A stretch of 33,061 nt of DNA, taken from the NCBI GenBank assembly GCA_018829485.1, contig JAHJTU010000086.1, forward strand, positions 1-33,061. Reading direction: 5' to 3'. Below, piece by piece: positions 1,408 to 31,923 of the stretch (positions are counted from its first letter, which is position 1; the number at the start of each line of letters is the position of its first letter). This DNA comes from Nanobdellota archaeon (GTDB lineage: Archaea; Nanobdellota; Nanobdellia; Pacearchaeales; UBA12030). The translations under genes were made by a program, and so were the position numbers. The notes beneath the pieces are model-generated. The model did not search any database and had not been told where the DNA came from. It saw only the letters and a list, made by a program, of their open reading frames with translations.

Positions 1408-2067
1408 TTATTCCCTATAAATCTCTTCAAAGATGTTTTTGATGATTTTGGCTTTTTTATTTCCTATTTTTTCAACTTCTGCAAGTTCTTGCTCAGTTGC
1501 ATTTGCAATTGCTTTTACTGTTTTGAATTTCTTTAGTAATGCTTTTGCTAAAGATGGTCCTACACTTGGCAAACCTTCAAGAATTATTTGTTGTTGTTCT
1601 GCCATTGTGTAAGCTTTCTTTTTGAATTTTAATCCATTCTCTGTTTTTCCTTTTTCAATTCTTTTTTGCAATGAAACAATAAACTCTGCTGTTTCATCAT
1701 AATCACTAGTAAATACTACTGGAATTTCATAATCTAACATAATACTAAGAAGCATTCCTCTTATTGCATTGGGATTGAAATTATTATATTCTGTTTTATA
1801 CAAATCACCTTCTACAATTACTAATGCTTTCTTGAATTGCTTTAATTCTTCAATTTGCCTGAATAATCTTTTATTTACCATAGAATTAATAAAATCAGAA
1901 GCAGTCTTCCTTTCAATTGCAACTTCTCCAATAATATAATCTGCAATAGGCAGTCTTTGGAATTCTATTTTTCCTCCAAGATTTACTATTTCATGTGCAA
2001 CAAGGCTATTTTTCTCTCTTTTATCAACAAGTATTTTCATTTTCTTTTCCTGGTTTTGCTCTTCCAT
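1408..2067 (-). CDS. xpf: XPF/Hef-type ERCC4 structure-specific nuclease with C-terminal (HhH)2
   Basis: ERCC4 signature VDKRE...IADYIIGEVAIERKTASDF (GDXnERKX3D type). C-terminal helix-hairpin-helix LEGLPSVGPSLAKALLKKF...EKIGNKKAKII. Confidence 0.9.
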   Translation of the reverse strand: MEEQNQEKKMKILVDKREKNSLVAHEIVNLGGKIEFQRLPIADYIIGEVAIERKTASDFINSMVNKRLFRQIEELKQFKKALVIVEGDLYKTEYNNFNPNAIRGMLLSIMLDYEIPVVFTSDYDETAEFIVSLQKRIEKGKTENGLKFKKKAYTMAEQQQIILEGLPSVGPSLAKALLKKFKTVKAIANATEQELAEVEKIGNKKAKIIKNIFEEIYRE

Positions 2068-2087
2068 TTTATTGCTTTGTTTTAAAA

Positions 2088-2456
2088 TTATTGTTTTGTT
2101 TTAAAAAATAACCAATTCTTTTCTCTGAATTTTATTAATGCATATTTTCCTTTCAATTTATTGCCTTTAATTTCTATAAGAATTTTTTTTGGTGTTTTTT
2201 CAAGTAGTATGTAAGTTCCCTTATCCCATATTTTTACTGTTCCTTTTCCATAACCTTCTTTTATTTCTCCTTGAAATGATGCATATCCAAGAGAATGATC
2301 TGCAACTTGCACTGCCAATCTTTTTTCTCCTATTTTTACTGATGGTTTTTTTGGAACAGCCCAGCTCTTTAATTTATTTCCAAATTGCAATCTTAAATCA
2401 TAATGTGCTTTTTTAGACCTGTGAAATTGTATTACATATACTCTATTTTGCATCAT
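2088..2456 (-). CDS. LigD-type DNA 3'-phosphoesterase (PE) domain protein, stand-alone
   Basis: VYVIQFHRSKKAHYDLRLQF..LKSWAVPKKPS matches the LigD PE core (xQxHxAxxxHYDxRLE...SWAVPKGPS). Start placed at Met11 (2456), overlapping the upstream gene's end by 14 nt. Confidence 0.85.
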   Translation of the reverse strand: MMQNRVYVIQFHRSKKAHYDLRLQFGNKLKSWAVPKKPSVKIGEKRLAVQVADHSLGYASFQGEIKEGYGKGTVKIWDKGTYILLEKTPKKILIEIKGNKLKGKYALIKFREKNWLFFKTKQ

Positions 2457-3510
2457 TTTTATTTTTATGGTAATGTAATCTCGCATTTAATCTTTTTCTT
2501 TCTTTTGCTTCTTCAGACTCATTATCTTTCCATTTATATTCATAACATTTTATTGGTGATGGACCAATATAATTTAAAAATTTATTTGCATCGGATTTTT
2601 TTATGGCCAGTTCATATCTATAATTTACTTTACATATTCTTATTTGAATATTTAATTCTTTCTCAATAAGATTTTTCAAAAAATAAATATCTTTTTTATT
2701 AAAAGCATCTAAACAAAGTTTTATTTCTCTATAAAAATTCCCATCACAGAGATAACATTGGAGTAAGAGATCTCTATTTATTATGATCTCTTTTGGAATT
2801 CCTTTTTTTCCTCTTTTATACCATTTATCCCTAAATAACTCAAAAGTTTTATACCGCCTTGTTTGTAAAAAATGTTGATTATACCCTTTATTTTTACATC
2901 GTTCATCTTTAATCCATCTAGAATGTATTGGACTAGAAAGAATATTCATATGAGATAATCTTGTTAAAATATATACTAAATATTCTTTATGTTTACAGGC
3001 TTGAGATAATGATCTTGGTAATATATTATCTTTTCTTTTTGGGATAGAAGCATCTCCAAGAAGCAAACCATCTATAAAAGATATGGTTTCTTTATTTAAA
3101 TTAAATTCTTTTGGAGGGTACTTGAGATTTATTTGATATTTGGAATTTCTTATCTTTATCTTATATTTTTTTAAATATCTTTTAACTGTTCCACGATCAA
3201 TTTTTAATTCCTTAGAAATATCTTTTATTCCTTTTTTATTTTTTATATACTCTTTTAGTAAATATTGTTTTGTTAATAATTTAGTGTATTTATATTTTCC
3301 ACCCAAAGAAGAAATAGTTGCTTGCTCTTTATGAGATCTTAAAGGGATGTTGTAGAAATGTAAATAATATCTTATTGTATTCCAGTCTTTTTTAAACTTT
3401 TTTTGTAATTGTGAAATAGAACTCTTATTTTGAAAGTATTCTTTTTTAAGAAGTTCTTTAGTTAATTCGTTTTTGTATCTCAATAATTTTGGATTTCGAT
3501 TTTTATACAT
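2443..3510 (-). CDS. Free-standing double-motif LAGLIDADG endonuclease with two N-terminal HTH-like repeats
   Basis: LAGLIDADG motifs FIDGLLLGDASI and LLQCYLCDGNF about 100 aa apart. Two repeated N-terminal modules: LLKKEYFQNKSSISQLQKKFKKDWNTIRYYL and LLKEYIKNKKGIKDISKELKIDRGTVKRYL. Start set at MYKNRNPK (3510), 21 nt downstream of a TATA box. Confidence 0.8.
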   Translation of the reverse strand: MYKNRNPKLLRYKNELTKELLKKEYFQNKSSISQLQKKFKKDWNTIRYYLHFYNIPLRSHKEQATISSLGGKYKYTKLLTKQYLLKEYIKNKKGIKDISKELKIDRGTVKRYLKKYKIKIRNSKYQINLKYPPKEFNLNKETISFIDGLLLGDASIPKRKDNILPRSLSQACKHKEYLVYILTRLSHMNILSSPIHSRWIKDERCKNKGYNQHFLQTRRYKTFELFRDKWYKRGKKGIPKEIIINRDLLLQCYLCDGNFYREIKLCLDAFNKKDIYFLKNLIEKELNIQIRICKVNYRYELAIKKSDANKFLNYIGPSPIKCYEYKWKDNESEEAKERKRLNARLHYHKNKNDAK

Positions 3511-3531
3511 AATATAACAAAGAAAATAGAA

Positions 3532-3539
3532 TATATAAA
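3532..3539 (-). promoter_or_regulatory. TATA box (TTTATATA on the minus strand) for the LAGLIDADG/PE/XPF operon
   Basis: Exactly 21 nt upstream of the ATG at 3510. Confidence 0.4.
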
Positions 3540-3714
3540 TATTTATATCCTGCATGTATTAACATTGCATGATGTTCATGAATTACATATTTTGCCATTT
3601 TCTTTTTATTAGTGTCTCTTTAATAAAGTTTCAATAATTAAAAATGTAACTATGGTTATGAAAGTTAATATTCACAACACAAATCTACCTTAAGTAAAGG
3701 AAAAAATAGGAAAA

Positions 3715-3743: not shown

Positions 3744-3854
3744 ATGGAAAAATACAAAATTTCGAAAAGGATATCTGAAAAAGACTTAGAAAAAGCACTT
3801 AGTTTTTTAGAAAAAAAAAGAAAATTTCATACCCGGCGCACCTTATTAATTTGA
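3744..3854 (+). CDS. Small 36-aa basic ORF upstream of the radical SAM gene (hypothetical)
   Basis: MEKYKISKRISEKDLEKALSFLEKKRKFHTRRTLLI*. It is below the ORF-track size cutoff, has a consensus promoter at leaderless spacing, and ends 20 nt before the 3875 ATG. No Cys and no homology recognised. Confidence 0.35.
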   Translation: MEKYKISKRISEKDLEKALSFLEKKRKFHTRRTLLI

Positions 3855-3874
3855 TGCTTTTTATTCCTTTATAA

Positions 3875-5569
3875 ATGGGAAAAATTAAATTTAGACCAAT
3901 CCATGTTATTTGGCATATCACTAACTCTTGTTTTTTTAATTGCAAATATTGTTTTACTAATTCTTATCCAAACTACAATTCCCCACCAAAGAAATCACAT
4001 TTACAAACCATTGTAAAGAGGATAAATGAAAATAAGAGTATAAAAAATCTTTCAATAATTGGTGGAGAGCCACTTTTAATTAATGAGCTCCCAGAAGTAA
4101 TCGAAAATTTAAGGAAGGACATATCTGTTAATATTGATTCTACTTTAATTGGAATTAAAGATAAATATGTTGATTCTTTTAAAAGGGTTTTATTCTCAAC
4201 AACTATTGATAGTATTGATGAATATATAAATACCAAAACAAGACCCAATCATTCATCAAAAGAAACAATAAAGAATATTGAATTTTTATTAAATAAAGGA
4301 ATAAGAGTACAGGTAGTTATAGTTGTGACAAAAAATAATGTAAAAACTATTGAAAAAACCGCAAGATTTTTATTGAATTTAGGTGTTGAAAGAATTTCGA
4401 TTAATCAAATCAGAATGGTTGGAAGAGCTCTCGATTTTGATTATGAATATTTTTATGATAATTCCAAAGAGATTAAAAATGATATTGCAACCCTGTTAAA
4501 AAGATTAATAAAAGAGTATAAAAAGTCTCGGGTTTTAGCAAATAATTGGTATTGTGATGAGATTTTTGATATTGGTTATGAACTTCCACCAACTTGTTCA
4601 TGCGCTCTTTTTAAAGTGTGTATTGATTGGAATGGTTATCTCTATCCTTGTGAATTGATGCCTTTCTACTGGAGAGAATTTGAAAAAGTATACAGGTTTA
4701 AGAGAATTAATTTAAAAAAAAGTTCTATTTCAGATATTTTTAATCACTCTTCACTTTTCAATTTTTTTAGAGAAAAAATCTTAATTTACCCTCCAACATG
4801 CAGTAAATGTGATTATAAGAAAAAATGCAATCATGGTTGTAGATTTTATTCCTTCTTGTTCTCTACAAATCTTTTATCTCAAGATCCTTTATGTAAAAAA
4901 TTTATTTCTCTTTACGATGTAATAGGATATCAAAATTATTCTCCATTCTCAAAACAAGGAATTAAAAGACTAAAAGGGGGGGTTGCAGATTATTTGAAAA
5001 AAAACAGTAAGATTCTTGGTAAAAATATATATGATATTGGTTGTGGTGGCGGGGTTTGGACATTTTATTTAGAAGATTTGGGTAAAAAATTAATAGGAAT
5101 TGATAATAATCAGATTATGATTCTAATAGCGCAAGATTATAAAAAATTACACCATAAGAAATCAGAATTTATTTTCTCAGACATATTAAATGTAAATTAT
5201 CAGAAATCAGATACTATTTTAATGTTGGACAATCTTGTTTTAATGTTTTCGAAAAAAGACCTAACTAATATTCTAGAAAAAATCAAGAATAAAACTAAAA
5301 GATTAATATTAGAACTTAATAAAAACAAATTAAAAGAAGGTGTGCAAGAATACACTTTTAATTCTTTCGACATAAGAGAGATTGTTTTAAGGAAGAATAA
5401 AAATATCTGTGAGAGAATCTTTCTGAACAAACAAACGGGCGCAGAATTCAAATTAAAAAATTATGATTGGACTAAAAGAGATCTAATTAATTTCCTAAAA
5501 AAACAAGGAGATGTCTTTGAAGATGAATCCAATAATTCTTATTTAATAAGATTGGATTTTCATCACTAA
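3875..5569 (+). CDS. Radical SAM / SPASM-domain protein fused to a C-terminal class I SAM-dependent methyltransferase
   Basis: CX3CX2C cluster (NSCFFNCKYC). SPASM-like Cys motifs CSCALFKVCIDWNGYLYPC and CSKCDYKKKCNHGC (CX2CX5CX3C). Methyltransferase motif I at IYDIGCGGGVW. Confidence 0.85.
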   Translation: MGKIKFRPIHVIWHITNSCFFNCKYCFTNSYPNYNSPPKKSHLQTIVKRINENKSIKNLSIIGGEPLLINELPEVIENLRKDISVNIDSTLIGIKDKYVDSFKRVLFSTTIDSIDEYINTKTRPNHSSKETIKNIEFLLNKGIRVQVVIVVTKNNVKTIEKTARFLLNLGVERISINQIRMVGRALDFDYEYFYDNSKEIKNDIATLLKRLIKEYKKSRVLANNWYCDEIFDIGYELPPTCSCALFKVCIDWNGYLYPCELMPFYWREFEKVYRFKRINLKKSSISDIFNHSSLFNFFREKILIYPPTCSKCDYKKKCNHGCRFYSFLFSTNLLSQDPLCKKFISLYDVIGYQNYSPFSKQGIKRLKGGVADYLKKNSKILGKNIYDIGCGGGVWTFYLEDLGKKLIGIDNNQIMILIAQDYKKLHHKKSEFIFSDILNVNYQKSDTILMLDNLVLMFSKKDLTNILEKIKNKTKRLILELNKNKLKEGVQEYTFNSFDIREIVLRKNKNICERIFLNKQTGAEFKLKNYDWTKRDLINFLKKQGDVFEDESNNSYLIRLDFHH

Positions 5570-10447: not shown

Positions 10448-10942
10448 TTACTTGTATACTGCTATCATTGGTCTTAGAAATATATCTTTTTTTGTTTTTG
10501 GATATGGGCCATAGTAATCCATCCAAACAATAAGAAAATCATCTTTTCTTAATTTTCTTCTTTTGCCAATTTCTGGGTCTTGTAAATATATGTGCTCTTT
10601 ATCTAATCCAATAACAACAGAATAATGTCCGTCAGCTGTAATACTTTCAGCATCTCCTTTTTTTCCTTTAGTATACCAACCAATAACAACTGGAATTCCT
10701 TTTTTTAAGTACTTGTTTAAATCTGAGAAATTTGAATTTACTTTTGTTTTTGTTTTCAATCCAAAATATTTGAATGCTTTTTCCAAATCTACTATTTCAG
10801 TTCCATGTTTTTCATGTGTTTTAGCAATTTTTGCAATAACCTTTTCAGAGATTTTTATTTTATAAAATTTGAGAATCATCTTTAAAACAGCTGGACCACA
10901 ACTGATAGTTTGTGTATATGGTTTAATTTTTAGAAATCCCAT
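10448..10942 (-). CDS. Stand-alone peptidase C39-like (papain-fold cysteine peptidase) domain protein
   Basis: Candidate catalytic Cys in QTISCGPAVLKMIL, His in DGHYSVVIGL and a following DP, in the order typical of C39-like domains. No ABC-transporter part. Confidence 0.65.
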   Translation of the reverse strand: MGFLKIKPYTQTISCGPAVLKMILKFYKIKISEKVIAKIAKTHEKHGTEIVDLEKAFKYFGLKTKTKVNSNFSDLNKYLKKGIPVVIGWYTKGKKGDAESITADGHYSVVIGLDKEHIYLQDPEIGKRRKLRKDDFLIVWMDYYGPYPKTKKDIFLRPMIAVYK

Positions 10943-10944
10943 CT

Positions 10945-11721
10945 TTATTTATTCTTTTTTGCTCTATGTTTTTCAACTTTGTCTGCTGCGCTTTTTACTT
11001 CTTTAGAATGCTTCATTAATGGCTGCATTATTCCTGAAAATGCTCTTTCCATTGCTTTAACATCTGTTCCCAAGTCTTTAACACCCTTGCCATATTCATT
11101 TACTTTTTCAAGCATTGCTGCATGAATATTCATTAAAGAATTATCAATCTTGTCAATTCTTTTTTCTATTCTGTCAATTTCTCTATCTACTCTTTCTTTC
11201 CATCCTTGAACATCACCAATTTTTTCCATAAATGCTCTCCATCTTTCTTCTATAATACTTTCAGCAATTTCTTCAAATGCTTCTGTTGTATAGCCTTGTT
11301 CATAACCAGGATATTCTTGTTCAGATTCATATTGCTGCTGTTCTTGTTGCTCTGGCTGTGTTTCAGGATAATAATTATAATCTTGCTGCTGTCCATAATC
11401 ATATTCTTGCTCATTTTGTTCAGGATATTGTGAAGGTCCTGGAACAAATTCATTCATTCCTTGTTCTGGCATTTGTCTTGGTGTGCCTTGCGGCATTCCT
11501 GACATTCTTGTTGGCTCTTGGGGTGACCTTTGAGATGGCATTGGAGCATCAGGCACTTCAGAGAACTCATCTGATCTTATTGATTGCTTAACTCTGGCTT
11601 GATTAAAGGCATCATTAACATCCTTATCAGTGTAACCCTGCTCTCTTAATCTTCTAATAATCTCTCCATCATTCATACCTGTTTTTTGCATCTCCAAGAC
11701 AAGTTTTGTTGGTGCTGGCAT
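10945..11721 (-). CDS. Hypothetical protein: small N-terminal helical domain, Q/E/Y/P-rich low-complexity linker, C-terminal coiled coil
   Basis: About 100 aa of PQ/EQ/Y-rich sequence (QEYDYGQQQDYNYYPETQPEQQEQQQYESEQEYPGYEQGY), then heptad-like REIDRIEKRIDKIDNSL. Stop is 2 nt from the C39-like gene start. Confidence 0.7.
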   Translation of the reverse strand: MPAPTKLVLEMQKTGMNDGEIIRRLREQGYTDKDVNDAFNQARVKQSIRSDEFSEVPDAPMPSQRSPQEPTRMSGMPQGTPRQMPEQGMNEFVPGPSQYPEQNEQEYDYGQQQDYNYYPETQPEQQEQQQYESEQEYPGYEQGYTTEAFEEIAESIIEERWRAFMEKIGDVQGWKERVDREIDRIEKRIDKIDNSLMNIHAAMLEKVNEYGKGVKDLGTDVKAMERAFSGIMQPLMKHSKEVKSAADKVEKHRAKKNK

Positions 11722-12250: not shown

Positions 12251-14491
12251 ATGCTTTTTAAGACTGGTACAAAACTTTTTGGTTATGAAGTTGTAAAAGA
12301 AGGACAGGAAAATCTCATGTATATTAATTGCTTTGGATATGCATTAGTTCCAAGTATTTCTGATGATGCTGCAATGATGGCACGTGTTATTGACAATTTA
12401 ATTGAAAATCCTGGAACAAGCAGAGTAATACTTTCACAACAGAAGAATTATGTTTACAGCCATGAAGAAACACAAATATTAATTGAAGTTGCAAATATTT
12501 ACACTTACTTGATAAGAGAAGAGAGAATTCTTGGTATGGAGAATATAAGAAATGATAAACTTGGAATGTTGAATTACCTTACTCTTACATTATTAAGATC
12601 TGATCCAATTGGCTGTTATGTTATGGCTAATAGATTAATTAGAGAAGAAAAAACACTTTCAAGAATAAAAGATTCTGAATATTTGAGAAGATTATCAAAA
12701 ATTTATGAATTGCTTGATAAAAGCTCTTTGATAAGAAGTGTAAAAGATAGATTAGCTGGATTTAAAGTTGGTACAAGACAAATTTATTATAACTTGTTCA
12801 GGCCAGATGTATTGCCTAATTTTACATTTACAAGATTAGTTTCTGAATTACCTATGGATGCAGAGATTATTGATGAATATTCTATTGGACAAGGAGAAGA
12901 AAAAAGTGATGTTACTATTTTGAAAAAAAAGGATGAAGTAAAACATTTTTACCATATAATGCCCCCAGAATTTAAGTTAGATGAAGATTCTTTAATGCTT
13001 CTTGATATTGCAAAACAAGTTCTTTTAGAGCATAGGCCAAGAGCAGAAGAATTTCTTGATCCTGACAGAATGAGACAAGTTTTCTTTAATATTGCAAGAG
13101 ATTTGCTTACTGAACTTGCACAGAGCAAAAGAATTAATTTAGATTATAAAGAATTATTAAAGCTTGCAAGAATTTTAGTAAGATATACTGTTGGTTTTGG
13201 TTTGATAGAGATTTTATTGCTTGATGATAAATTGCAAGATATTGTTATTAATGCCCCAATTGGATTAACACAGATTTTTGTAAGACATGCTGATTATGAT
13301 GAATGTGTTACAAATATTATGCCTTCACAAGAAGATGCTGAAAGTTGGGCTGCTAAATTTAGAATGATTTCTGGAAGACCTTTAGATGAAGCACATCCTG
13401 TTTTAGATACTGAACTTACTGTGCAGAATATAAGTGCAAGAGTAAGTATTATTCAAGAGCCATTAAGTCCTTATGGATTAGCATATGCAATTAGAAGATT
13501 CAGAGAAAAGCCTTGGACTTTACCTTTGTTTGTAAAAATAGGAATGATGAGTCCTCTTGCTGCTGGCTTGTTTTCATTTTTAATTGATGGAAGCAGAACA
13601 ATGTTAATTGCAGGAACAAGAAGTTCTGGAAAAACATCTTTGCTTGGAAGTTTATTATTTGAGTTAATGCCAAAATACAGAGTAATTGTTATTGAAGATA
13701 CATTAGAATTGCCAGTTGAAGCATTAAGAAAGCTTGGTTATGATGTGCAAAGAATGAAAGTAAGAGCTGCATTACTAAAAGAAACAACAGAAGTTGCAGC
13801 TGATGAAGGTATTAGAACATCATTAAGACTTGGAGACAGTGTTTTAATTATTGGTGAAGTTAGAAGTCTAGAAGCAAAAGCATTATATGAAGCAATGAGA
13901 GTTGGTGCATTGGCAAATACAGTAGCAGGAACTATTCATGGTGCAAGTCCGTATGCTATTTTTGATAGAGTTGTAAATGATTTGCAAGTGCCAGTTACAA
14001 GTTTTAAAGCAACTGATATTATTGCAGTTGCTAATCCAATTAAATCACCAGATGGAATGCATTCTTGGAGAAGATTAGTACAAATAAGTGAAGTTAGAAA
14101 AAATTGGAAAGAAGATCCTTTAGCTGAAAAAGGATTTGTTGATTTAATGAAATACAATGCTGAGAAAGATGAACTTGAACCAACAGATGAATTAATTAAT
14201 GGGGAATCTGAAACTTTGAAATCAATTGCAGGAAATGTAAAAGAATGGGCAGGTAATTGGGATGCAATATGGGATAATATTCAATTAAGAGCAAAAATTA
14301 AAGAAACACTTGTGCGACATGGAGATAAAATTCCTGATTTGCTTGAAGCTCCATTTATTGTAAAATCAAATAATGCATTTCATAATCTTTCTGATTCTGT
14401 TTTAAGAGAACATGGAAGTTTAGACAGCAAAAGAATCTTTGAAGAATGGAATGAATGGCTCAGAAGAGAAATTAAGAGAGCGAAGGTTTAG
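12251..14491 (+). CDS. Archaeal type IV pilus/archaellum-type secretion ATPase (PilB/FlaI/VirB11 superfamily) with a long N-terminal extension
   Basis: Walker A IAGTRSSGKTSLL, Walker B/Asp box RVIVIEDTLELP, His box AGTIHGASP. About 440 aa of N-terminal domain precede the ATPase core. Confidence 0.9.
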   Translation: MLFKTGTKLFGYEVVKEGQENLMYINCFGYALVPSISDDAAMMARVIDNLIENPGTSRVILSQQKNYVYSHEETQILIEVANIYTYLIREERILGMENIRNDKLGMLNYLTLTLLRSDPIGCYVMANRLIREEKTLSRIKDSEYLRRLSKIYELLDKSSLIRSVKDRLAGFKVGTRQIYYNLFRPDVLPNFTFTRLVSELPMDAEIIDEYSIGQGEEKSDVTILKKKDEVKHFYHIMPPEFKLDEDSLMLLDIAKQVLLEHRPRAEEFLDPDRMRQVFFNIARDLLTELAQSKRINLDYKELLKLARILVRYTVGFGLIEILLLDDKLQDIVINAPIGLTQIFVRHADYDECVTNIMPSQEDAESWAAKFRMISGRPLDEAHPVLDTELTVQNISARVSIIQEPLSPYGLAYAIRRFREKPWTLPLFVKIGMMSPLAAGLFSFLIDGSRTMLIAGTRSSGKTSLLGSLLFELMPKYRVIVIEDTLELPVEALRKLGYDVQRMKVRAALLKETTEVAADEGIRTSLRLGDSVLIIGEVRSLEAKALYEAMRVGALANTVAGTIHGASPYAIFDRVVNDLQVPVTSFKATDIIAVANPIKSPDGMHSWRRLVQISEVRKNWKEDPLAEKGFVDLMKYNAEKDELEPTDELINGESETLKSIAGNVKEWAGNWDAIWDNIQLRAKIKETLVRHGDKIPDLLEAPFIVKSNNAFHNLSDSVLREHGSLDSKRIFEEWNEWLRREIKRAKV
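14454..14490 (+). repeat. Direct repeat copy 1 (3' end of the ATPase CDS)
   Basis: aatggctcagaagagaaattaagagagcgaaggttta recurs at 15821-15857 with one synonymous mismatch. Confidence 0.9.
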
Positions 14492-14506
14492 AGATTGAAA
14501 TTTTTA

Positions 14507-14725
14507 TCATAATCTGATAACTAAATTTTTTACAGAATTGACTAAGATTCTAATTTCCTCTAAATCCTTTCTCGATTTTTCTGTATAATCAGTCCAACCA
14601 CCACCGCCCGGTGGAGAATATTTTAACCAACGACTTTCTAGTATGCTTATAATATTTTCCATATCTTTTGTATGTATCAAAATATTATTCAAGAGGTTTA
14701 TTGTCTCTTTTTTTGTTCTATCCAT
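14507..14725 (-). CDS. Small hypothetical protein in the cassette
   Basis: 72 aa from ATG 14725 (MDRTKKETINLL...PPGGGGWTDY...). The ORF-track start is a TTG two codons upstream. A TA-repeat TATA element lies about 21 nt upstream. Confidence 0.5.
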   Translation of the reverse strand: MDRTKKETINLLNNILIHTKDMENIISILESRWLKYSPPGGGGWTDYTEKSRKDLEEIRILVNSVKNLVIRL

Positions 14726-14771
14726 CCCCAAACCACAAATCCCATATATATATATTTAACGATTTTTAGAA

Positions 14772-15257
14772 TTAATTTATTATTTCTTTGAAGGTTTTCC
14801 TGTATTCTTGGATACGTTCATTTGTTAACTTTGAAATAAAATCAGAGATTTCACTATTGAATATATCTGCCTTTTTTATTGCATCTTTAACTTCTTCTTT
14901 TGTTATAGAGAAATTAATATAATATTGCTTGTCAATTCTTTCTCTTTTTGCAGTTAAAATTTCATTATTATTTTGGTTGAATAATCTTTTTAGAAGAACA
15001 ATAGATGCAAGATGGTTTTCTGATTTTATTCCTATTTTGAAAAGCAATGCAGTTAAAAGATGATACATGCTGTAATAAACCAATGATATAGATTCTTCAA
15101 GTTTATTGCTATTTAAAAGTATTTTTGCAGAACCCATATTGCTTTCAGATTTTTTAATATAAGCTTTCTTAACTTCTTCACTAGGTTCAACAAGTTCAAG
15201 TTTCCCCTCTTTTATTAATTTATTCAAAAAATTTGTTTTTTTCATAATATTTTTCAA
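14772..15257 (-). CDS. HEPN-domain protein (toxin-like partner of the adjacent nucleotidyltransferase)
   Basis: All-helical, about 160 aa, with AKRERIDKQYY resembling the conserved R..(D)Y region of HEPN proteins. It overlaps the end of the upstream NTase gene, the classic MNT-HEPN pair layout. Confidence 0.65.
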   Translation of the reverse strand: MKNIMKKTNFLNKLIKEGKLELVEPSEEVKKAYIKKSESNMGSAKILLNSNKLEESISLVYYSMYHLLTALLFKIGIKSENHLASIVLLKRLFNQNNNEILTAKRERIDKQYYINFSITKEEVKDAIKKADIFNSEISDFISKLTNERIQEYRKTFKEIIN

Positions 15258-15768
15258 CCCCCTTTATAATGATATGGTTTTTTTCAATCTCTTTAATCAA
15301 TAAATTCTCTTTATCATATTTTCCTATTTTAACATTTATTCTTGCATCTATCTTTTCTAAGTCATGTTTAATTTGTTTTTTATTTGTTTCTACATATATG
15401 TCTATATCACTTTCTTTTTTAGGAATTCCTTTAGCATAAGAACCAAATAATATTGCAAGACTTATTCTTTTGTCTTCTTTTATCTTTTCTATAATGCTTC
15501 TTAATGTGGGATATTTTTTTAATATTTTTGTTAAGTTATAATTTTCTGTTGTAAAAACATAACTTTTAGCTTCTATTGTGTTTTTTAGAAAATATATCTT
15601 GTTTCTACCTTCTTCTTGATAATCTACCACATTCTCATTTGTGAGTTCTTTTAGTTTTCTGATTATAATGGTGTGGTTAGTGCCTAAGTTTTTTGCAATC
15701 AACCTAGCATGTTTTTTACTTTTTACTAATTCATTAATTATTTCTAATTTGTAATCTTTTTGTTCCAT
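15220..15768 (-). CDS. Winged-HTH fused to a minimal nucleotidyltransferase (MNT) domain
   Basis: NTase signature LFGSYAKGIPKKESDIDIYV (GSx9-10 DxD). N-terminal HTH-like KHARLIAKNLGTNHTIIIRKLKELTNENVV. ATG at 15768; the ORF-track start at 15777 is a TTG. Confidence 0.8.
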   Translation of the reverse strand: MEQKDYKLEIINELVKSKKHARLIAKNLGTNHTIIIRKLKELTNENVVDYQEEGRNKIYFLKNTIEAKSYVFTTENYNLTKILKKYPTLRSIIEKIKEDKRISLAILFGSYAKGIPKKESDIDIYVETNKKQIKHDLEKIDARINVKIGKYDKENLLIKEIEKNHIIIKGVEKYYEKNKFFE

Positions 15769-15788
15769 ATGGAACAAATATGTTCCAT
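15761..15788. promoter_or_regulatory. Operator-like palindrome plus a third half-site over the MNT start codon
   Basis: TGTTCCATATGGAACA is a perfect 16-nt palindrome (15761-15776). TGTTCCAT occurs again at 15781-15788. Both lie between the TATA (TTTAAATA, minus strand, 15791-15798) and the ATG. Confidence 0.55.
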
Positions 15789-15820
15789 AGTATTTAAATG
15801 TTACTGTTTCTTGGAAGAAA

Positions 15821-15857
15821 AATGGCTAAGAAGAGAAATTAAGAGAGCGAAGGTTTA
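15821..15857 (+). repeat. Direct repeat copy 2 (orphan relic of an ATPase 3' end)
   Basis: 36/37 identical to 14454-14490. The mismatch (ctc to cta) is synonymous. The stop codon is TAA instead of TAG. Confidence 0.9.
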
Positions 15858-16148
15858 AGAATAAGCTAATTTTTCACAAAAACTCTTTATAAGACTTATT
15901 GCAATAAGGTGGTTTCTTTTATCAAATTCTGTTGCAAGAATTAAGTCTTTAACATGGTTAATTCCTTTTAATGCTTGTTTATAGTTTCTTTTTTTAATTA
16001 ATTCTATTACATTCTTTAAAGCTATTACAGCTGCATTAAGATTCTCATAAACTTCCTTATTACGTCTTTCATAATATTTTGCTTCATTAATTAATCTTTG
16101 TAATAAATCAGAAGTTTGTGTCAAAAGCCTCTTTTCATTATCTACCAT
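15855..16148 (-). CDS. Small helical hypothetical protein
   Basis: 97 aa, predicted all-alpha. Its stop codon overlaps the stop of the relic ATPase end. A TATA-like GTATATAAG lies about 22-29 nt upstream of its ATG. Confidence 0.55.
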   Translation of the reverse strand: MVDNEKRLLTQTSDLLQRLINEAKYYERRNKEVYENLNAAVIALKNVIELIKKRNYKQALKGINHVKDLILATEFDKRNHLIAISLIKSFCEKLAYS

Positions 16149-16253
16149 AAGAAACTTAACAAATAAAAGTATATAAGTTTTATTACACAGGCAAAGGATT
16201 TAAAATATGGTTTTCTTTTTATTCTTGTATAAAAGAAAGAGGAATGCAAGGGA

Positions 16254-18395
16254 ATGGCAAATCCAGATGTTAAGGATATTTTGAAAAGATATGAAGCAAG
16301 ACTTAACAGAGAACTTGAGTATGAAACTACAAATGTTGAGTTTACAAAAGAGTATGAGCAATTCAAGAGAGAAGCATTCAAGCCTTTAAGCAGATACGAA
16401 AAGTGGGCAAAATTTGCTTCAAAAATCCTGAAAGTAAAACCATCAGGAAAGAACTCAGAAAAATTTGACAAAGCATTAAGCATTGTTCATTCTGAAATAA
16501 CTTCTGAAGAATCTATGAGCTTGGCTGTTAATGCTTTTATTGTTACAATACTCTTGACTGTTATTGGTTTTGCAAGTTATGTTTTTCTTACAGGAGGAGA
16601 ATATCTTCCATTAATGTATTTATTTTTAGGAGTACTCTTTTCAGGATTCTTATTTTATTGGCTTTATTCTTTTCCATTAATACAAGCAAAAATATGGAGG
16701 CTTAAGTCTAGTTCTCAACTTGTACAGGCATTATTATTTATTGTCATTTACATGAAGCACACTCCTAATTTAGAACGAGCAATAAAATTTGCTTCAGATC
16801 ATTTGCAACCACCATTGTCATTAGACTTCAAGAAAATATTTTGGGATGTTGAAGTTGGAAAATATTCTACAATAAGGGAAAGTATTGACAATTACTTGGA
16901 AACTTGGAGAGACGGTAATTTAGAATTTGTTGAAGCAATGCACTTAATTGAAAGTTCATTGTATGAGCCAAAAGAGTACAAGAGAATTGAGATTTTGGAA
17001 AAAAGTTTGACTACTGTTTTGGAAGGTGTACAAGAAAAAATGCTTTCTTATACTCATGATATTAAAGCACCATTAACAAACATCTACATGTTGGGAATTG
17101 TTCTGCCAACACTTGCATTAGCATTAATACCATTAGCATCTGCATTGCTTGGTGGATTAATAACTTGGCAGCACATTATTGTGATGTTTAATATTATTGT
17201 TCCATTTTTTGTTTATTACATGACTTCTCAAGTATTGTTAACAAGACCAGCAGGTTATGGTGAAACAGAATTACTTGAATTGCATCCGGATTATGCTAAG
17301 TATAAGAGTAATACACCTAATTTAATTGCATTTTTAATTGCATTACCTTTTTTCATTTTAGGAATTTTGCCATTATTTATGCTTTTTCCTAATTTTGCTT
17401 CTAGCATTGGGTTAGCAGATTTTGATATATTCTTTTTAGGAAAGTTTTTTGATGTAAAAACAACAGCAACAGGATTAGCAGGGCCATTTGGATTAGGTGC
17501 TGTATGCTTAAGCTTATTTTTGCCATTATCAATAAGTTTGTTCTTTGCAGTAAGCTATAGCATGAAAACATCACAATTAATTAAAACAAGAAAAGAAACA
17601 AAGAAGTTAGAAGATGAATATGGTTCTGCATTATTTCAATTAGGTAATAGGTTATCTTCAGGAGTTCCAGCTGAAATGGCATTTGGAAGAGTTGCTGAAG
17701 TATTGCATGGAACACCAACAGGAAAATTCTTTTCTTTAGTTAATAATAATATTCAGAATGGAATGTCTGTTAAGGAAGCGATTTTTAACAGGCAAAGAGG
17801 AGCAATTATTTATTTTCCTTCATCATTAATTAAAACTTCAATGCATATTCTTATTGAAGGAGCAAGAAAAGGATTAAAAATAGCATCAGAAAGCATGATT
17901 AGTATTGCAGAGCATGTTAAAAGTATTCATAGAATTGAAGAAAGATTAAAAGATTTAGTTGCAGATGTTGTTGTAAGTATGAAAAGCAATATCTCCTTTT
18001 TAGCTCCTATTCTTGGTGGTGTTGTTATTGGATTAGCTGCAATGATAACAATGATAATAAATTACTTGACAACAATGATGGCGGCTTTAGAAACAGGTGA
18101 AGCAGCTAGTATTGGAGGAGCAGAAGGAATTGTTACATTATTTAATATAGAAAGCATGATTCCACCTTATTTCTTACAAATTGCAATTGGAATATATCTA
18201 GTTCAGATTATATTCATACTAACTCAAACTGTTGTTGTAATTGAAAATGGTGCTGACAAACTTACAGAAAGAAATGAAATAGCTAAAAATCTTTATAAAG
18301 GAATTTCATTTTATTTGATAATTGCATTAATTTCAATACTAGTACTAACATTGCTTGCATCATTAGTTATGACACAAATTGGGCCATTAGGATAA
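16254..18395 (+). CDS. Type IV pilus/archaellum platform membrane protein (PilC/TadC/FlaJ-like, T2SS-F domains)
   Basis: 713-aa polytopic protein. Cytoplasmic helical domains alternate with TM bundles. YGSALFQLGNRLSSGVPAEMAFGRVAEVL resembles the T2SS-F domain. It pairs with the upstream ATPase. Confidence 0.75.
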   Translation: MANPDVKDILKRYEARLNRELEYETTNVEFTKEYEQFKREAFKPLSRYEKWAKFASKILKVKPSGKNSEKFDKALSIVHSEITSEESMSLAVNAFIVTILLTVIGFASYVFLTGGEYLPLMYLFLGVLFSGFLFYWLYSFPLIQAKIWRLKSSSQLVQALLFIVIYMKHTPNLERAIKFASDHLQPPLSLDFKKIFWDVEVGKYSTIRESIDNYLETWRDGNLEFVEAMHLIESSLYEPKEYKRIEILEKSLTTVLEGVQEKMLSYTHDIKAPLTNIYMLGIVLPTLALALIPLASALLGGLITWQHIIVMFNIIVPFFVYYMTSQVLLTRPAGYGETELLELHPDYAKYKSNTPNLIAFLIALPFFILGILPLFMLFPNFASSIGLADFDIFFLGKFFDVKTTATGLAGPFGLGAVCLSLFLPLSISLFFAVSYSMKTSQLIKTRKETKKLEDEYGSALFQLGNRLSSGVPAEMAFGRVAEVLHGTPTGKFFSLVNNNIQNGMSVKEAIFNRQRGAIIYFPSSLIKTSMHILIEGARKGLKIASESMISIAEHVKSIHRIEERLKDLVADVVVSMKSNISFLAPILGGVVIGLAAMITMIINYLTTMMAALETGEAASIGGAEGIVTLFNIESMIPPYFLQIAIGIYLVQIIFILTQTVVVIENGADKLTERNEIAKNLYKGISFYLIIALISILVLTLLASLVMTQIGPLG

Positions 18396-25257: not shown

Positions 25258-25288
25258 TTATTGGTAAATATACTTGTTTATATAAAAA

Positions 25289-25296
25289 TTTATAAA
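25289..25296 (+). promoter_or_regulatory. TATA box (TTTATAAA) for radA
   Basis: Exactly 21 nt upstream of the ATG at 25318. A second TTTATATA sits just upstream at 25278-25285. Confidence 0.4.
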
Positions 25297-25317
25297 GTTT
25301 GGCACTTTAAATTGAAT

Positions 25318-26337
25318 ATGGCTGAGGAAAAGGAGTTAGAAAAAGAGCAAGTTAAAGTTAAGGAAGAAAAAGAGCAGGAAAAAGAGAAAGAAATAGAGCT
25401 TACACTTACAGACTTGCCTGGAATTGGTGAAGTTATTGCAAAGAAGCTTACTGAGGCAGGTTATGGTGATTTGATTAGTGTTGCTGCTTTATCTCCAAGA
25501 GAATTAATTTCATTAGCTGGACTTACTGAAACAGCAGCAAGAAAAGTAATTCAAGCAGCAAGAAAAGTATTGGATTTAGGATTTACTAGTGCTACAAAAT
25601 TCCTTGAAAAAAGACAAGAAGTAATTAAAATCACAACAGGAAGCAAGAATCTTAATGAATTGCTTGGTGGTGGTGTTGAAACCAAGGCAATAACAGAAGC
25701 TTTTGGTTCTTATGGTTCAGGAAAAACTCAGATTGGACATGTTTTAGCTGTATCAACACAAATGCCAATTGAAAAAGGTGGTGCTGGTGGCATGGCAGTT
25801 TATATTGATACTGAAGGAACATTTAGGCCTGAAAGAATTAAGCAAATTGCAAAATCATTAGGAGTTAAACCAGAAGATGCATTAAAGAATATTTTAGTTG
25901 CAAGAGCTTTAAGTTCAGATCATCAAATGCTTTTAGCTGAAAAAGTTGTTGATTTAATTAGGGAAGGAAATCCTATAAAATTGTTAATTGTTGATTCTCT
26001 TATTAGTTTATTCAGAGCAGAGTTTACAGGAAGAGGAACTTTAGCTGATAGACAGCAGAAATTAAACAAGCATTTGCATACTCTTCATAAAATTGCAGAT
26101 TCTTATAATTTAGCAGTTTATGTTACTAATCAGGTTATGTCAAGGCCAGATATTTTATTTGGTGATCCTACAGTTGCAATTGGAGGACATATTGTTGGAC
26201 ATGCATCAACATTCAGAATATATTTAAGAAAAGGCAAGAAAGATTCAAGAGTTGCTAAACTTATTGATTCACCTAATTTGCCTGATTCAGAATGTGTTTT
26301 CTTTATCAAAGAAGGTGGAGTTTCTGATAAGGAGTAG
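25318..26337 (+). CDS. radA: DNA repair and recombination protein RadA
   Basis: N-terminal HhH LTDLPGIGEVIAKKLTEAGY, Walker A GSYGSGKTQ, Walker B LLIVDS, and RadA/Rad51 core similarity throughout. Start at ATG 25318 (MAEEKELEK); the track start is a TTG extension across the promoter. Confidence 0.95.
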   Translation: MAEEKELEKEQVKVKEEKEQEKEKEIELTLTDLPGIGEVIAKKLTEAGYGDLISVAALSPRELISLAGLTETAARKVIQAARKVLDLGFTSATKFLEKRQEVIKITTGSKNLNELLGGGVETKAITEAFGSYGSGKTQIGHVLAVSTQMPIEKGGAGGMAVYIDTEGTFRPERIKQIAKSLGVKPEDALKNILVARALSSDHQMLLAEKVVDLIREGNPIKLLIVDSLISLFRAEFTGRGTLADRQQKLNKHLHTLHKIADSYNLAVYVTNQVMSRPDILFGDPTVAIGGHIVGHASTFRIYLRKGKKDSRVAKLIDSPNLPDSECVFFIKEGGVSDKE

Positions 26338-27567: not shown

Positions 27568-28173
27568 ATGCAAGCACAAGAAAAATTAACAAAAGAACAA
27601 TTAGAACAAATAAAAAAATTTCAGGAATTGCCTAAAGAAAAACAACAAGAAATACTTGAACAACAATGCATATTCTGCCAAATTTCTCAAGGTAAAGTTG
27701 ATACAATAAAAGTTTTTGAAGATTTTGATATGCTTGCTGTTTTAGATATAAATCCTGCATCTAAAGGACATATTCTTATTTTTCCTAAGAAACATTATCA
27801 GTTATTTTTCCAATTACCAGATAGTATAAGGAATAAGTTATTTGAAATTGCACAGAAAATTTCAATTTATCTTGTTAATATTCTTAAATGTGAAGGAATA
27901 AATCTTTATGTAGCAAATGGAGCAGCTGCAGGACAAAGAGTTCCCCATTTTGTTTTACATGTAATTCCAAGATTTGAAAATGATGGCATAAATTTTGATT
28001 GGCAATCTCAAAAAACAGATAAGAAAGAATTAGAGAAAATTGCAAAATTATTAAGAGAAAATTTAGCAAAAGAAAAAAAGCAAAAACAAGAGAAAGCAGT
28101 TCCAAAAGAACAAATTGAAAAAGAGCAGCAAAAACTTGAGAAGGAATTAAAGAAATTTAGAAGAGTGCCATAA
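27568..28173 (+). CDS. HIT-family (histidine triad) protein with K/E/Q-rich N- and C-terminal extensions
   Basis: CIFCQISQGKV...FEDFDMLAVLDINPASKGHILIFPKKH...AAGQRVPHFVLHVIPR. The triad reads H-F-V-L-H rather than HxHxH. Confidence 0.8.
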   Translation: MQAQEKLTKEQLEQIKKFQELPKEKQQEILEQQCIFCQISQGKVDTIKVFEDFDMLAVLDINPASKGHILIFPKKHYQLFFQLPDSIRNKLFEIAQKISIYLVNILKCEGINLYVANGAAAGQRVPHFVLHVIPRFENDGINFDWQSQKTDKKELEKIAKLLRENLAKEKKQKQEKAVPKEQIEKEQQKLEKELKKFRRVP

Positions 28174-31013: not shown

Positions 31014-31040
31014 ATATCAAAATTTAATAATAATATAAAA

Positions 31041-31913: not shown

Positions 31914-31923
31914 AAAGAGGAAA

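Follow-up and report, generated by a model that had tools for sequence, protein, structure and literature searches.

How a putative toxin-antitoxin cassette came to lie between two genes of a pilus locus, bracketed by two copies of the end of the first gene, is the question raised by this stretch of archaeal DNA. The window (the whole stretch analysed, 33,061 nt) is contig JAHJTU010000086.1 of assembly GCA_018829485.1, read on the forward strand, from a Nanobdellota archaeon of the DPANN (GTDB Nanobdellota; Nanobdellia; Pacearchaeales; UBA12030). Positions 12251-14491 of the plus strand encode a 746-aa type IV pilus/archaellum-type assembly ATPase (PF00437 T2SSE, E=2.3e-14) with thousands of DPANN homologs, the best of them 83-86% identical. 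As the initial annotation had reported, the end of this gene (14454-14490, plus strand; its final 12 codons and the TA of the stop; AATGGCTCAGAAGAGAAATTAAGAGAGCGAAGGTTTA) recurs at 15821-15857 on the same strand with one synonymous change: the copies agree at 36 of 37 positions, the sole difference being C14461 versus A15828 (CTC/CTA, both Leu). The ATPase ORF is uninterrupted, its TAG stop being completed by G14491, the first base of the insert. The distal copy runs into a relic TAA stop (15856-15858), which is the ATPase stop in all four close relatives examined (L001, L095, L099 and L100); this copy is the displaced original end of the gene, now 1,367 nt downstream.

The 37-mer does not look like a common repeat, a possibility raised at the outset: at up to three mismatches it is matched twice in the window and never in 100 shuffles, the pair is the only near-perfect direct repeat of such size in the 33 kb, and the 29-nt core has no match in IMG/VR or in 116 fetched loci (copies of the window locus excluded). 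Its edges are sharp. The protein-level similarity beyond the repeat that had been proposed (FEEWNEW against FLEEKW) did not hold, since the 50-nt flanks align no better than shuffles (121 of 2,000 and 144 of 2,000 reach the score).

The DNA between the copies (14491-15820, 1,330 bp) is a horizontally acquired wHTH-MNT/HEPN toxin-antitoxin cassette, with a putative toxin role, plus one orphan ORF. It holds the three minus-strand genes first annotated there, is lower in GC (22-28%) than the ATPase gene (about 30-36%), and is missing from the closest relatives (L095-L102). The gene at 15220-15768 encodes a 182-aa wHTH-minimal nucleotidyltransferase (MNT; PF18765 and PF01909), a putative antitoxin and autoregulator that carries a GS-x10-DxD motif (GSYAKGIPKKESDID) and has 1,634 homologs, mostly 60-72% identical, in Nanoarchaeota/Woesearchaeota-type records. 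It overlaps by 26 nt the gene for the putative toxin, a HEPN protein of 157 aa (14772-15245; 161 aa from the TTG at 15257; PF05168, E=3e-10) with 9xbd and 2hsb/AF0298 as distant PDB relatives. In the HEPN family (57 homologs) the motifs E-N-H and K-x-E-R-x-D-K-Q-Y-Y are invariant and the canonical Rx4-6H was not found. The third ORF (14507-14725, 72 aa; 74 aa from the TTG at 14731) has a TATA-like stretch of its own, no homolog among 5.8 billion proteins, no tblastx/tblastn match in about 115 loci and no Pfam or PADLOC match; it is extra cargo that the family's other cassettes do not have, and it might be a spurious ORF. A cassette promoter/operator is predicted from the sequence at 15760-15799 of the minus strand, with a TATA box (TTTAAATA) and inverted repeats TGGAACA/TGTTCCA that straddle the MNT start codon; this block of roughly 45 nt is the sole conserved non-coding part of the cassette family (64 loci).

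The pair resembles HEPN/MNT systems (HepT/MntA, type VII) in having the MNT gene first and overlapping the HEPN gene, in the GS-x10-DxD motif and in its matches to PF01909/PF18765 and PF05168. The HEPN protein also keeps the conserved C-terminal tyrosines, residues of the kind proposed or shown to be AMPylated (PMC3710099, PMC7641770). Unlike HepT/MntA, it falls in the 'HEPN-T' branch of PF05168, which often replaces the H and retains an H elsewhere (PMC3710099), and has the two invariant motifs instead of Rx4-6H, while its partner bears an N-terminal wHTH. Similarity to the solved HepT/MntA structures is marginal. Because the HEPN protein lacks the canonical Rx4-6H, both toxin activity and addiction are assumptions. 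Judging from the families, the MNT would repress its own promoter via the palindrome over the start codon and would neutralise the HEPN toxin by AMPylation.

An element that integrated at the 3′ end of the ATPase gene and supplied a replacement end had been proposed for this locus, and empty syntenic sites in relatives with 80-86% identical ATPases bear this out. In these closest relatives the ATPase stop is followed by a spacer of 29-39 nt and then by the platform gene: 39 nt up to the platform ATG in an 83% relative (four independent assemblies, with full synteny on both sides), 39 nt in an 86% relative (partial) and 29 nt in an 80% relative. This demonstrates that the cassette was inserted at the 3′ end of the ATPase gene, with the ORF kept and the original end displaced. 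The native spacer persists in the window at 16210-16253 (plus strand); its homology with the relatives' 39-nt spacer is supported by local alignment (score reached by 1 of 3,000 shuffles). It precedes the native downstream neighbour of the ATPase gene, which encodes a 713-aa polytopic platform protein (16254-18395, plus strand) with a weak PF00482 T2SSF match, under the curated cutoff; relatives have a syntenic 708-713-aa platform gene straight after the ATPase gene.

The initial annotation had expected that, at an empty site, a homolog of the gene at 15855-16148 would converge directly on the ATPase stop. Empty sites were found, but this convergent gene, a 97-aa ORF low in GC, is missing there, and a set of 1.8 billion representative proteins yielded no credible homolog of it. 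It lies in a second inserted segment (15828-16209, minus strand), missing from L095-L102, delimited by assembly-graph branch points (a contig starts at 16210 in two assemblies), variable in the population and with no repeat flanking it. Since only 29-39 nt part the ATPase and platform genes of the closest relatives, the cassette and the 97-aa ORF are both insertions, the latter a separate one between the relic and the native spacer and not a native neighbour. Cassettes of the MNT-HEPN family occupy the same gap in three or more separate ATPase lineages, and unrelated genes, including a MazEF-like pair, do so in other relatives; the gap looks like a permissive hotspot.

A duplicated 37-mer in a metagenome might also stem from mis-joined strain variants, and the locus is polymorphic in the source population, with public contigs that break at the repeat. 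Such an artefact is nevertheless extremely improbable. Both junctions are crossed by contigs of a separate public assembly, the proximal one within a 15.8-kb megahit contig and the distal one within a 664-nt contig (15687-16350) that leads from the MNT gene through the relic to the platform gene and overlaps each neighbouring contig by exactly k=141. The repeat is far below this k, so that no collapse or duplication is possible there, and the same layout is found in about ten unrelated contigs from other projects. The contig ends also bear on the population itself. A Logan k=31 contig corresponds exactly to 14462-15827, and a megahit k=141 contig ends at 15827, so that public contigs stop precisely where the two window repeats differ. 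As the two copies have no 30-mer in common, these breaks imply alternative bases or hybrid repeats in the population; from the contig ends we infer alternative assembly paths there. Neither a circular form nor a hybrid junction was recovered, nor was an allele of this strain exactly as it stood before the insertion.

The layout is not peculiar to the window. We surveyed 73 metagenomic loci with cassettes of this MNT-HEPN family, covering 4-12 kb of sequence around each cassette. Direct repeats of at least 39 bits upstream and downstream of the cassette were present in 13 of the 73, a score reached at none of 66 pseudo-cassette control positions, and unmatched locus pairs gave at most 37 bits. 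Repeats of 32-117 nt bracket the cassette at ten distinct loci, window included, and abut it in nine of the ten. Every repeat is a copy of local host sequence straddling a gene boundary and differs from site to site: it is the 3′ end of a protein gene at the window, L015, L041, L057 and L088, the final 41 nt of a tRNA-Leu (3′ half) at L059, and the 5′ end of a gene at L029, L058 and L082. L113, with a 49-nt repeat (98%), adds an independent case to these nine. Abutting repeats end 40-141 nt upstream of the MNT ATG; their downstream copies begin 5-38 nt past the HEPN stop at the seven cargo-free loci. The compact unit (~1.05-1.15 kb) starts at the promoter/operator block, past which no conserved termini were found, and takes in MNT and HEPN up to the stop codon of the latter; where there is extra cargo, it consists of additional toxin-antitoxin or small genes. 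In line with the first impression that integrases and transposases are lacking, no such domain occurs in the window ORFs that yield a Pfam result. The abutting units contain no ORF of typical-integrase size (judged by gene size rather than domains), and the IMG/VR viral contigs yielded no family member. Our results show that the repeat-bracketed, integrase-less layout is a family-wide pattern at about ten unrelated sites; about 85% of the sampled cassettes are without a repeat, among them all 13 co-oriented ATPase>MNT>HEPN>platform loci (about 10 distinct). Offered the choice between a decayed integration and an unrecognised way for toxin-antitoxin cassettes to move, the data lean to the latter, because this layout recurs at about ten unrelated sites with the same minimal cassette. 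The mechanism of this movement is a matter of inference.

The survey also bears on whether MNT-HEPN could be a conserved pilus-locus accessory, such as a regulator or abortive-infection guard, with the window representing a local rearrangement of an ancestral ATPase>MNT>HEPN>platform operon. A platform homolog does lie 26-107 nt past HEPN in 10 of the 45 loci with enough flank, and the ATPase lies upstream in 9 of 48. These pilus-linked loci are all co-oriented and tightly packed and belong to one ATPase clade, consistent with vertical inheritance; another family member adjoins a different T2SSE/T2SSF locus. However, the window's own clade (L095-L102 and L001) is without the pair, most cassettes of the family sit in unrelated contexts, the gap holds unrelated genes in other relatives, as described above, and a simple inversion of a co-oriented module would leave the ATPase tail on the opposite strand, giving no direct repeat. 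This makes a functional position very unlikely.

We favour, with somewhat more confidence than doubt, an addictive cassette that has no integrase and duplicates host sequence as it inserts, most probably through Campbell-type recombination via short host-derived repeats; taken by itself, the Campbell-type mechanism is more tentative, a little short of an even chance. The flanking repeats would act as att-like sites. A cassette circle carrying a short host stretch would integrate by one Campbell-type crossover where the host has the same sequence, with the crossover run by the host recombination machinery (RadA is encoded at 25261-26337 of the window) or by a low-specificity recombinase in trans, and recombination between the two repeats would excise or convert the cassette again. 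Addiction, if present as assumed, would shield the repeat-flanked insertion from loss by such recombination. Since the window repeat has sharp edges and no flanking homology, the Campbell donor would have to be essentially of the same strain, and the first origin of the repeat at a new site is left unexplained. The many sampled cassettes without a repeat also weigh against this reading, and an integrase might act in trans from beyond the 4-12 kb covered around each cassette.

That origin would be accounted for by a true target-site duplication, in which a linear or replicating copy of the cassette is caught up in a staggered double-strand break or in template switching during replication: overhangs of 37-117 nt, once filled in, would generate the repeat, and the incoming DNA would need no homology. 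The repeats are by definition duplicated target sequence, different at every site; their edges are sharp, their copies are called perfect in L058, L059 and the L015 outer pair (36/37 in the window), their lengths are 37-43 nt in five loci, and the variable cassette ends fit the capture of arbitrary fragments. We know of no prokaryotic enzyme, however, that makes staggered cuts so large and variable. L015, L059 and L111 carry three or four repeat copies between successive toxin-antitoxin cassettes, and repeated hits in one 40-70-nt window are unlikely without targeting. The outer pair of L015 is perfect and its inner copy more diverged, an order (inner older) impossible by sequential simple insertions. 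Furthermore, the 97-aa ORF segment and the L001 genes entered the same gap without such a duplication. We consider this origin unlikely. Transposons and MITEs also leave duplicated target sequence around the insert, but theirs is fixed at 2-15 nt whereas that of the MNT-HEPN cassettes varies from 32 to 117 nt, and the cassettes have no terminal inverted repeats, conserved ends or transposase.

The arrangement at the window is reminiscent of e14/phage 21 in E. coli icd, where insertion in the 3′ end of a gene supplies a replacement end. As in such elements, tRNA-targeting archaeal proviruses and plasmids included, the repeats overlap the target 3′ end, the target stays functional, the displaced end lies at the far junction and the repeat size is typical of archaeal att cores; 55-nt repeats at a tRNA-Ser, for instance, flank an integrase-bearing archaeal element (PMC4158269). 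These elements have their own integrase and one fixed att, whereas in the MNT-HEPN units, of only 1.1-1.4 kb, no integrase is seen and the repeat varies by site. Among non-autonomous att-flanked elements, the CIMEs of streptococci are cis-mobilisable, attL/attR-flanked at a gene 3′ end and without recombination genes; a known ICE, whose integrase matches the one defined site, is both their source and what mobilises them. Our units are like them in their att-like flanking repeats, lack of recombination genes and tandem arrays sharing att copies, and unlike them in using many sites, with no cognate autonomous element known.

A CIME-like remnant or satellite, that is, a larger integrase-bearing element that had integrated site-specifically in a gene 3′ end and decayed by deletion to the toxin-antitoxin pair between attL and attR or served by an integrase in trans, would explain the classic layout of an intact target on one side and a displaced end on the other. 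One repeat does lie in a tRNA-Leu 3′ half, lengths of 37-66 nt fit archaeal att cores, three-copy att-like arrays resemble tandem accretion at an att site, and toxin-antitoxin genes are the likeliest survivors of a decaying element. Yet about ten target sequences would need equally many integrase specificities, the same minimal unit is what remains at nine independent loci where random decay should leave variable debris, and integrase-sized ORFs, integrase domains and viral-contig members are missing within the searches given above. This renders a remnant improbable.

In favour of site re-use and recombination at the repeats, as the preferred reading has it, we count the arrays of L015, L059 and L111, the contig breaks in the window, the island haplotypes described below and a concentration of repeat differences at the edges in L082 and L057 (P=0.008 and 0.04). 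These are the only two loci where this clustering is significant, the copies in four others fitting uniform decay or being perfect. Several of the patterns could also arise if the repeats underwent gene conversion with each other. The cassettes differ from those of integrons in having no attC (their repeats lie 5-38 nt past the HEPN stop in the cargo-free loci), in having their own promoter and in that IntI is not seen; an integron cassette owns a distinct attC, while the flanking repeats here are identical to each other and host-derived. Like integron cassettes, they are one- or two-gene units, often toxin-antitoxin, in repeat-separated arrays with haplotypes shuffled at the repeats: in one island with two haplotypes, divergence begins exactly at the start of the downstream repeat.

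The last 37 nt of the ATPase gene occur twice in the window, as the initial annotation had claimed. The 37-mer AATGGCTCAGAAGAGAAATTAAGAGAGCGAAGGTTTA at 14454-14490 recurs at 15821-15857 with a single, synonymous difference (C14461 versus A15828); with as many as three mismatches allowed, the window has two matches to it, whereas 100 dinucleotide-preserving shuffles have none. This pair is the sole near-perfect direct repeat of such size in the 33 kb. The proximal copy comprises the final 12 codons of the 746-aa T2SSE ATPase (12251-14491) plus the first two stop-codon bases, and its junction reads ..GAATGAATGGCT-C-core-GAGATTG; the distal junction reads ..GAAAAATGGCT-A-core-AGAATAAG. The ATPase stop is TAG at the proximal copy, where the G is the first inserted base, and TAA at the distal copy. 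Since TAA ends the ATPase gene in four of four close relatives, and the proximal TAG uses the inserted G, the distal copy is, judging by its sequence, the displaced original end of the ATPase gene. Outside the 37-mer, 50 nt on each side align no better than shuffles, so the repeat is sharp-edged, and the protein-level similarity said to extend further upstream (FEEWNEW versus FLEEKW) is not borne out. No Rfam family was found within 14300-16400, no tRNA overlaps the region, and the 29-mer core of the repeat had no match on viral contigs (IMG/VR).

Between the copies lie the three minus-strand genes that had been described: an orphan 72-aa ORF (14507-14725), for which a search for homologs and DNA relatives returned none, a HEPN protein (15245-14772, PF05168), which is the putative toxin, and a wHTH-nucleotidyltransferase (MNT, 15768-15220, PF18765/PF01909), the putative antitoxin. 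The insert has a GC content of 22-28%, against about 30-36% in the ATPase gene. Its target is an archaeal type IV pilus-like locus in which a FlaI/PilB-type ATPase is followed by a polytopic TadC/FlaJ-type platform protein, a pair conserved across DPANN relatives; T2SSE passes its cutoff and T2SSF is a weak match (18.8 bits versus a cutoff of 25.2). The relatives are labelled Nanoarchaeota, Woesearchaeota or Pacearchaeota, and the organism is itself a DPANN archaeon. None of the 10 genome relatives examined (ATPase 49-78% identical) carries the three genes, all 10 lack a second copy of their own ATPase tail, and no ATPase-tail relic was seen in these 10 or in nine loci with a co-oriented cassette. 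The closest ATPase homologs are P0122 (83% identical, four independent assemblies), P0131 (86% over the available part) and P0123 (80%). In their loci the ATPase stop is followed by a 29-39-nt spacer and then by the ATG of a 708-713-aa platform gene, and in the 83% relative the gene order of the window is kept on both sides. These loci represent the empty site, with an uninterrupted ATPase-spacer-platform arrangement and a single gene end, and their 37-mers have diverged from that of the window. The 50 nt 5′ of the window's platform gene (16254-18395) are homologous to the relatives' spacer (score reached by 1 of 3,000 shuffles); the sequence directly after the relic stop shows no significant similarity to it. 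Because the closest relatives and the homologous spacer show direct adjacency of ATPase and platform, the region from 14491 to about 16209 is extra DNA and, by this comparison, is inserted material, 97-aa ORF included. The proposed insertion into the ATPase 3′ end with supply of a replacement end is thus upheld by the empty sites of the closest relatives and by the displaced TAA end. The empty site does not have the form that had been predicted: relatives have ATPase and platform without the cassette, and no homolog of the convergent 97-aa ORF stands beside the ATPase stop.

Independent assemblies bear on both the repeat and its variation. In a megahit assembly (ENA ERZ27247117) the locus is distributed over three contigs, one of 15.8 kb that ends at window position 15827, one of 664 nt equal to 15687-16350, and one of 25 kb that starts at 16210. 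Contigs of this assembly cross both repeat junctions, which rules out an assembly artefact as the source of the repeat. The overlaps between the contigs are exactly k=141, and therefore the graph branches at 15827/15828 and 16209/16210. The Logan assembly of SRR6514730 (k=31) has a contig that begins at 16210 and another that covers exactly 14462-15827, beginning just after the proximal mismatch and ending just before the distal one. The longest identical stretch between the two window copies is at most 29 bases, too short for the repeat itself to cause a branch in a k=31 graph. We infer that the population holds alternative bases or hybrid repeats at exactly both mismatch positions, which would be the expected outcome of exchange between the copies, be it gene conversion or excision and re-integration, and probably also an alternative to segment 15828-16209. 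This segment, which contains the 97-aa ORF, has branch points of two public assembly graphs at its ends and is missing from the closest relatives; no long repeats were found around it or around the genes filling the same gap in L001, one of the genome relatives. It looks like a separate presence/absence polymorphism. The convergent 97-aa ORF (15855-16148) had been taken for a native neighbour, a view that its absence from the closest relatives, its low GC and the lack of any credible homolog contradict. A search of 1.8 billion representatives returned just two repeat-protein artefacts, and the ORF is treated here as an ORFan. The convergent 120-aa ORF of L001 was considered as its counterpart and rejected (nothing by BLASTP; borderline by Smith-Waterman, 16 of 500 shuffles reaching the score).

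The MNT gene lies 5′ of the HEPN gene with a 26-nt overlap, and the order is the same in the sampled loci in which both genes were detected. The MNT motif GS-x(9-11)-DxD is present (window GSYAKGIPKKESDID), with G109, S110, D121 and D123 invariant across 32 homologs. The alignment of 57 HEPN homologs contains invariant E-N-H and K-x-E-R-x-D-K-Q-Y-Y, and the Rx4-6H RNase motif was not found in it. This agrees with the published description of the HEPN-T (PF05168) branch, which often replaces the H and keeps one elsewhere (PMC3710099). In HEPN/MNT modules the MNT protein AMPylates the HEPN toxin (PMC7641770; PMC3710099), and gene order, overlap and GS-x10-DxD motif fit a putative toxin-antitoxin (TA) module of this kind. 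Similarity of the cassette proteins to solved structures is marginal; with PADLOC, MNT matches generic nucleotidyltransferase/wHTH candidate families only and the other ORFs match nothing. Outside its genes, the cassette is conserved solely in a block of ~45 nt that holds a TATA box and an inverted repeat over the start codon. Its layout in the family (window 15760-15799 and 64 loci) is TTTAAATA, then TGTAACA-N5-TGTTACA up to the ATG, and this palindrome suggests autoregulation by the wHTH domain. Many MNT gene calls begin three codons early (MLHMEQK), within the operator.

The MNT family gave 1,634 matches, mostly 60-72% identical and from DPANN; 80 cassette loci (numbered with the prefix L) were fetched from JGI metagenomes. 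The 185-aa window MNT has no exact protein on record, and its cassette lineage was not found elsewhere, the best relatives being at most 72% identical. IMG/VR viral contigs yielded no member of the MNT-HEPN family. Thirteen loci (about 10 distinct; about a fifth of those sampled) have an MNT-HEPN pair between ATPase and platform homologs, co-oriented and tightly packed, with the platform start 26-107 nt from the pair (L020, L031, L032, L037, L047-L050, L066, L067, L074, L077 and L091). Duplication of the ATPase tail is absent in all 13. The ATPases of these loci group in one clade, L074 falling next to it and L048 on a distant branch; this suggests an old, vertically inherited residence. The window's own ATPase clade is otherwise without a cassette, so the window cassette is an independent acquisition, in opposite orientation; on strand logic, it cannot have arisen by simply inverting the usual ATPase>MNT>HEPN>platform module. 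The cassette family has occupied the ATPase-platform gap at least three times, and residence there could reflect a functional link to the pilus.

The association of the cassette with direct repeats extends beyond the window. Comparison of the sequence upstream of MNT with that downstream of HEPN in 73 loci revealed a direct repeat of at least 39 bits in 13. Unmatched locus pairs, identical or homologous loci set aside, reached at most 37 bits, and the 39-bit threshold was not reached at any of 66 pseudo-cassette positions in comparable DNA. Doubtful cases were left out of the count: L075 (paralogous flanking genes), L036 (a promoter-like resemblance at a distance of 2.3 kb), L094 (a 24-mer in coding sequence, remote from the cassette) and L068/L069 (a shared 21-nt TATA region). 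Ten distinct loci with cassette-bracketing repeats remained. The repeats derive from gene 3′ ends in the window (37 nt, ATPase), L041 (66 nt, upstream gene), L088 (43 nt, convergent gene), L057 (66 nt, convergent gene) and L015 (56-58 nt, small convergent gene), from gene 5′ ends in L058 (37 nt), L082 (117 nt, with the promoter) and L029 (32 nt, two extra genes inside), and from the last 41 nt of a tRNA-Leu(TAG) gene in L059 (= L062; 40-42 nt); that of L071 measures 43 nt. L113 is a further independent case (49 nt at 98%). Of the ten loci, only L029 has repeats that do not abut the unit. In the other nine, 40-141 nt separate the end of the upstream copy from the MNT ATG; in the seven of them that carry no extra cargo, 5-38 nt lie between the HEPN stop and the start of the downstream copy. 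The sequences adjoining the repeats are unrelated among the nine.

Three loci (L015, L059 and L111) show re-use of a site. In L015 three copies of the gene end set apart two different pairs of MNT/HEPN type; the two outer copies match perfectly over 58 nt and the inner one is a diverged 37-nt version, an order that two successive simple insertions cannot produce. In L059 the order is tRNA, cassette, 42-nt tRNA end, second TA pair and degenerate tRNA end. A C-rich repeat of 50-70 nt (..CACACCCCGCCTTTTAAAAACC..; 283-371, 2238-2308, 3820-3873 and 5008-5056, also in L112 and L113) occurs at least four times in the TA island of L111, where its copies separate MNT-HEPN, a second MNT/HEPN-like pair and a ParE-containing block. 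The repeat pairs around each cassette are 97-98% identical and different pairs 80-89%, and two haplotypes of the island part exactly at the start of the downstream repeat. Differences between copies are clustered at the edges in L082 (P=0.008) and L057 (P=0.04); four other loci show perfect copies or uniform decay. Taken together, the arrays, the edge clustering and the contig breaks at the window mismatches suggest that recombination acts at the repeats and that the same sites are used again. Addiction by the putative toxin would explain why repeat-flanked TA cassettes persist despite recombination between the repeats.

With integrative elements the cassette shares direct repeats (attL/attR-like) over a target gene end, with a single such end at the empty site. 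The prophage e14 and phage 21 integrate into the 3′ end of icd and restore the gene, and CIMEs are devoid of an integrase; the cassette layout resembles both, as well as archaeal elements that target tRNA genes. However, an autonomous integrative element has its own tyrosine or serine recombinase, and none was found for the window cassette. Indeed, the reported absence of an integrase or transposase was confirmed among the window ORFs that gave a Pfam result, none of which, in the insert or outside it, has a recombinase or integrase domain; judged by ORF size, the repeat-bounded units contain no typical integrase, and no autonomous element with an integrase using the same att was seen in the 4-12 kb around each cassette. 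That the cassettes are decayed or trans-mobilised integrative elements is an explanation that we regard as improbable. Insertion sequences, transposons and MITEs have conserved ends or terminal inverted repeats and a short target duplication of fixed size, whereas the cassette has no terminal inverted repeat and duplications of 32-117 nt. An integron cassette carries attC at its 3′ end, is promoterless and needs an IntI platform; here, in the seven loci free of extra cargo, just 5-38 nt separate the HEPN stop from the repeat, the cassette has its own TATA box and operator, and no integrase was found in the window. The cassette thus lacks defining features of autonomous integrative elements, of IS or MITEs and of integron cassettes.

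An end-recognising transposase is unlikely because the cassette has no conserved ends, and a single site-specific integrase is unlikely because repeat sequences vary among sites. We favour, tentatively and at somewhat below even chances, a Campbell-type integration, in which a circle of the cassette with a short host-derived segment would recombine with the matching host sequence, the catalyst being either the host's own recombination machinery (RadA is encoded at 25261-26337) or a recombinase of low specificity acting in trans. Against this stand the sharp edges of the window repeat, and neither a circle nor a hybrid junction was seen. A staggered-break or template-switch duplication of the target seems to us an unlikely account as well; nevertheless, how a repeat first arises at a new site fits better with a true duplication at a staggered break. 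It is possible, if doubtful, that the ~1.1-kb wHTH-MNT/HEPN unit of DPANN archaea is a distinct mobile element with no recombinase of its own and no defined ends, which would spread by carrying or copying 32-117 nt of host gene ends as its attachment sites, be moved by host homologous recombination or by a so far unsuspected activity of the DNA-binding MNT, and be kept by addiction. We consider it equally speculative that TA modules have here a distinct, recombinase-independent way to move.

To our knowledge, there is little evidence of how a bare two-gene module reaches a new chromosomal site outside plasmids, transposons and integrons. Our literature searches turned up neither a repeat-flanked HEPN/MNT cassette without an integrase nor an account of TA mobility in DPANN, and TA pairs are routinely called mobile (for example PMC2701414). 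The present family is large (more than 1,600 proteins) and resides in genome-reduced archaea in which the footprint of insertion is still readable: gene ends, a tRNA end or gene starts of the host, duplicated around a minimal promoter-to-stop unit at many sites, together with arrays and hints of polymorphism at the repeats in natural populations. If the repeats are self-made attachment sites, they would explain how compact genomes take insertions without gene loss and how TA and defence islands grow at particular gene ends, and would provide a simple rule to delimit such cassettes in metagenomes. If the unit is a distinct mobile element, it offers a concrete, testable mechanism for the movement of TA modules.

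The ATPase-platform junction of the pilus locus appears as a recurrent landing or variable site. Different small genes fill this gap in L001, L002, L003, L007 and L009, and a MazEF-like pair (75-aa and 106-aa ORFs) lies directly 3′ of the ATPase gene in L005 (8368-8893). Some ATPases of this family, 1,090-1,288 aa long, contain an intein with a LAGLIDADG endonuclease (L103/L104 1-1045; P0161, P0172 and P0233), and L103 carries a further family member (MNT and a truncated HEPN) 3′ of a different T2SSE/T2SSF/T2SSF locus.

In the window itself, a C39-family peptidase and a Q/E-rich 258-aa protein are encoded upstream of the pilus genes (10448-11721), and a prepilin (A24) peptidase 10 kb downstream of them (28157-29002). 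Three adjacent minus-strand genes at 1408-3555 encode an ERCC4/XPF-type nuclease (1408-2067), a LigD 3′-phosphoesterase domain protein (2088-2486) and a free-standing LAGLIDADG_2 endonuclease-like ORF with an N-terminal HTH/NUMOD1 (2443-3555). Two tandem 290-aa paralogs, one with a weak CARDB match, occupy 31041-31913 and 31924-32796, and their 92-nt 5′ regions (31021-31112 and 31904-31995) are 79% identical, including an identical stretch that encodes a lipoprotein-like signal.
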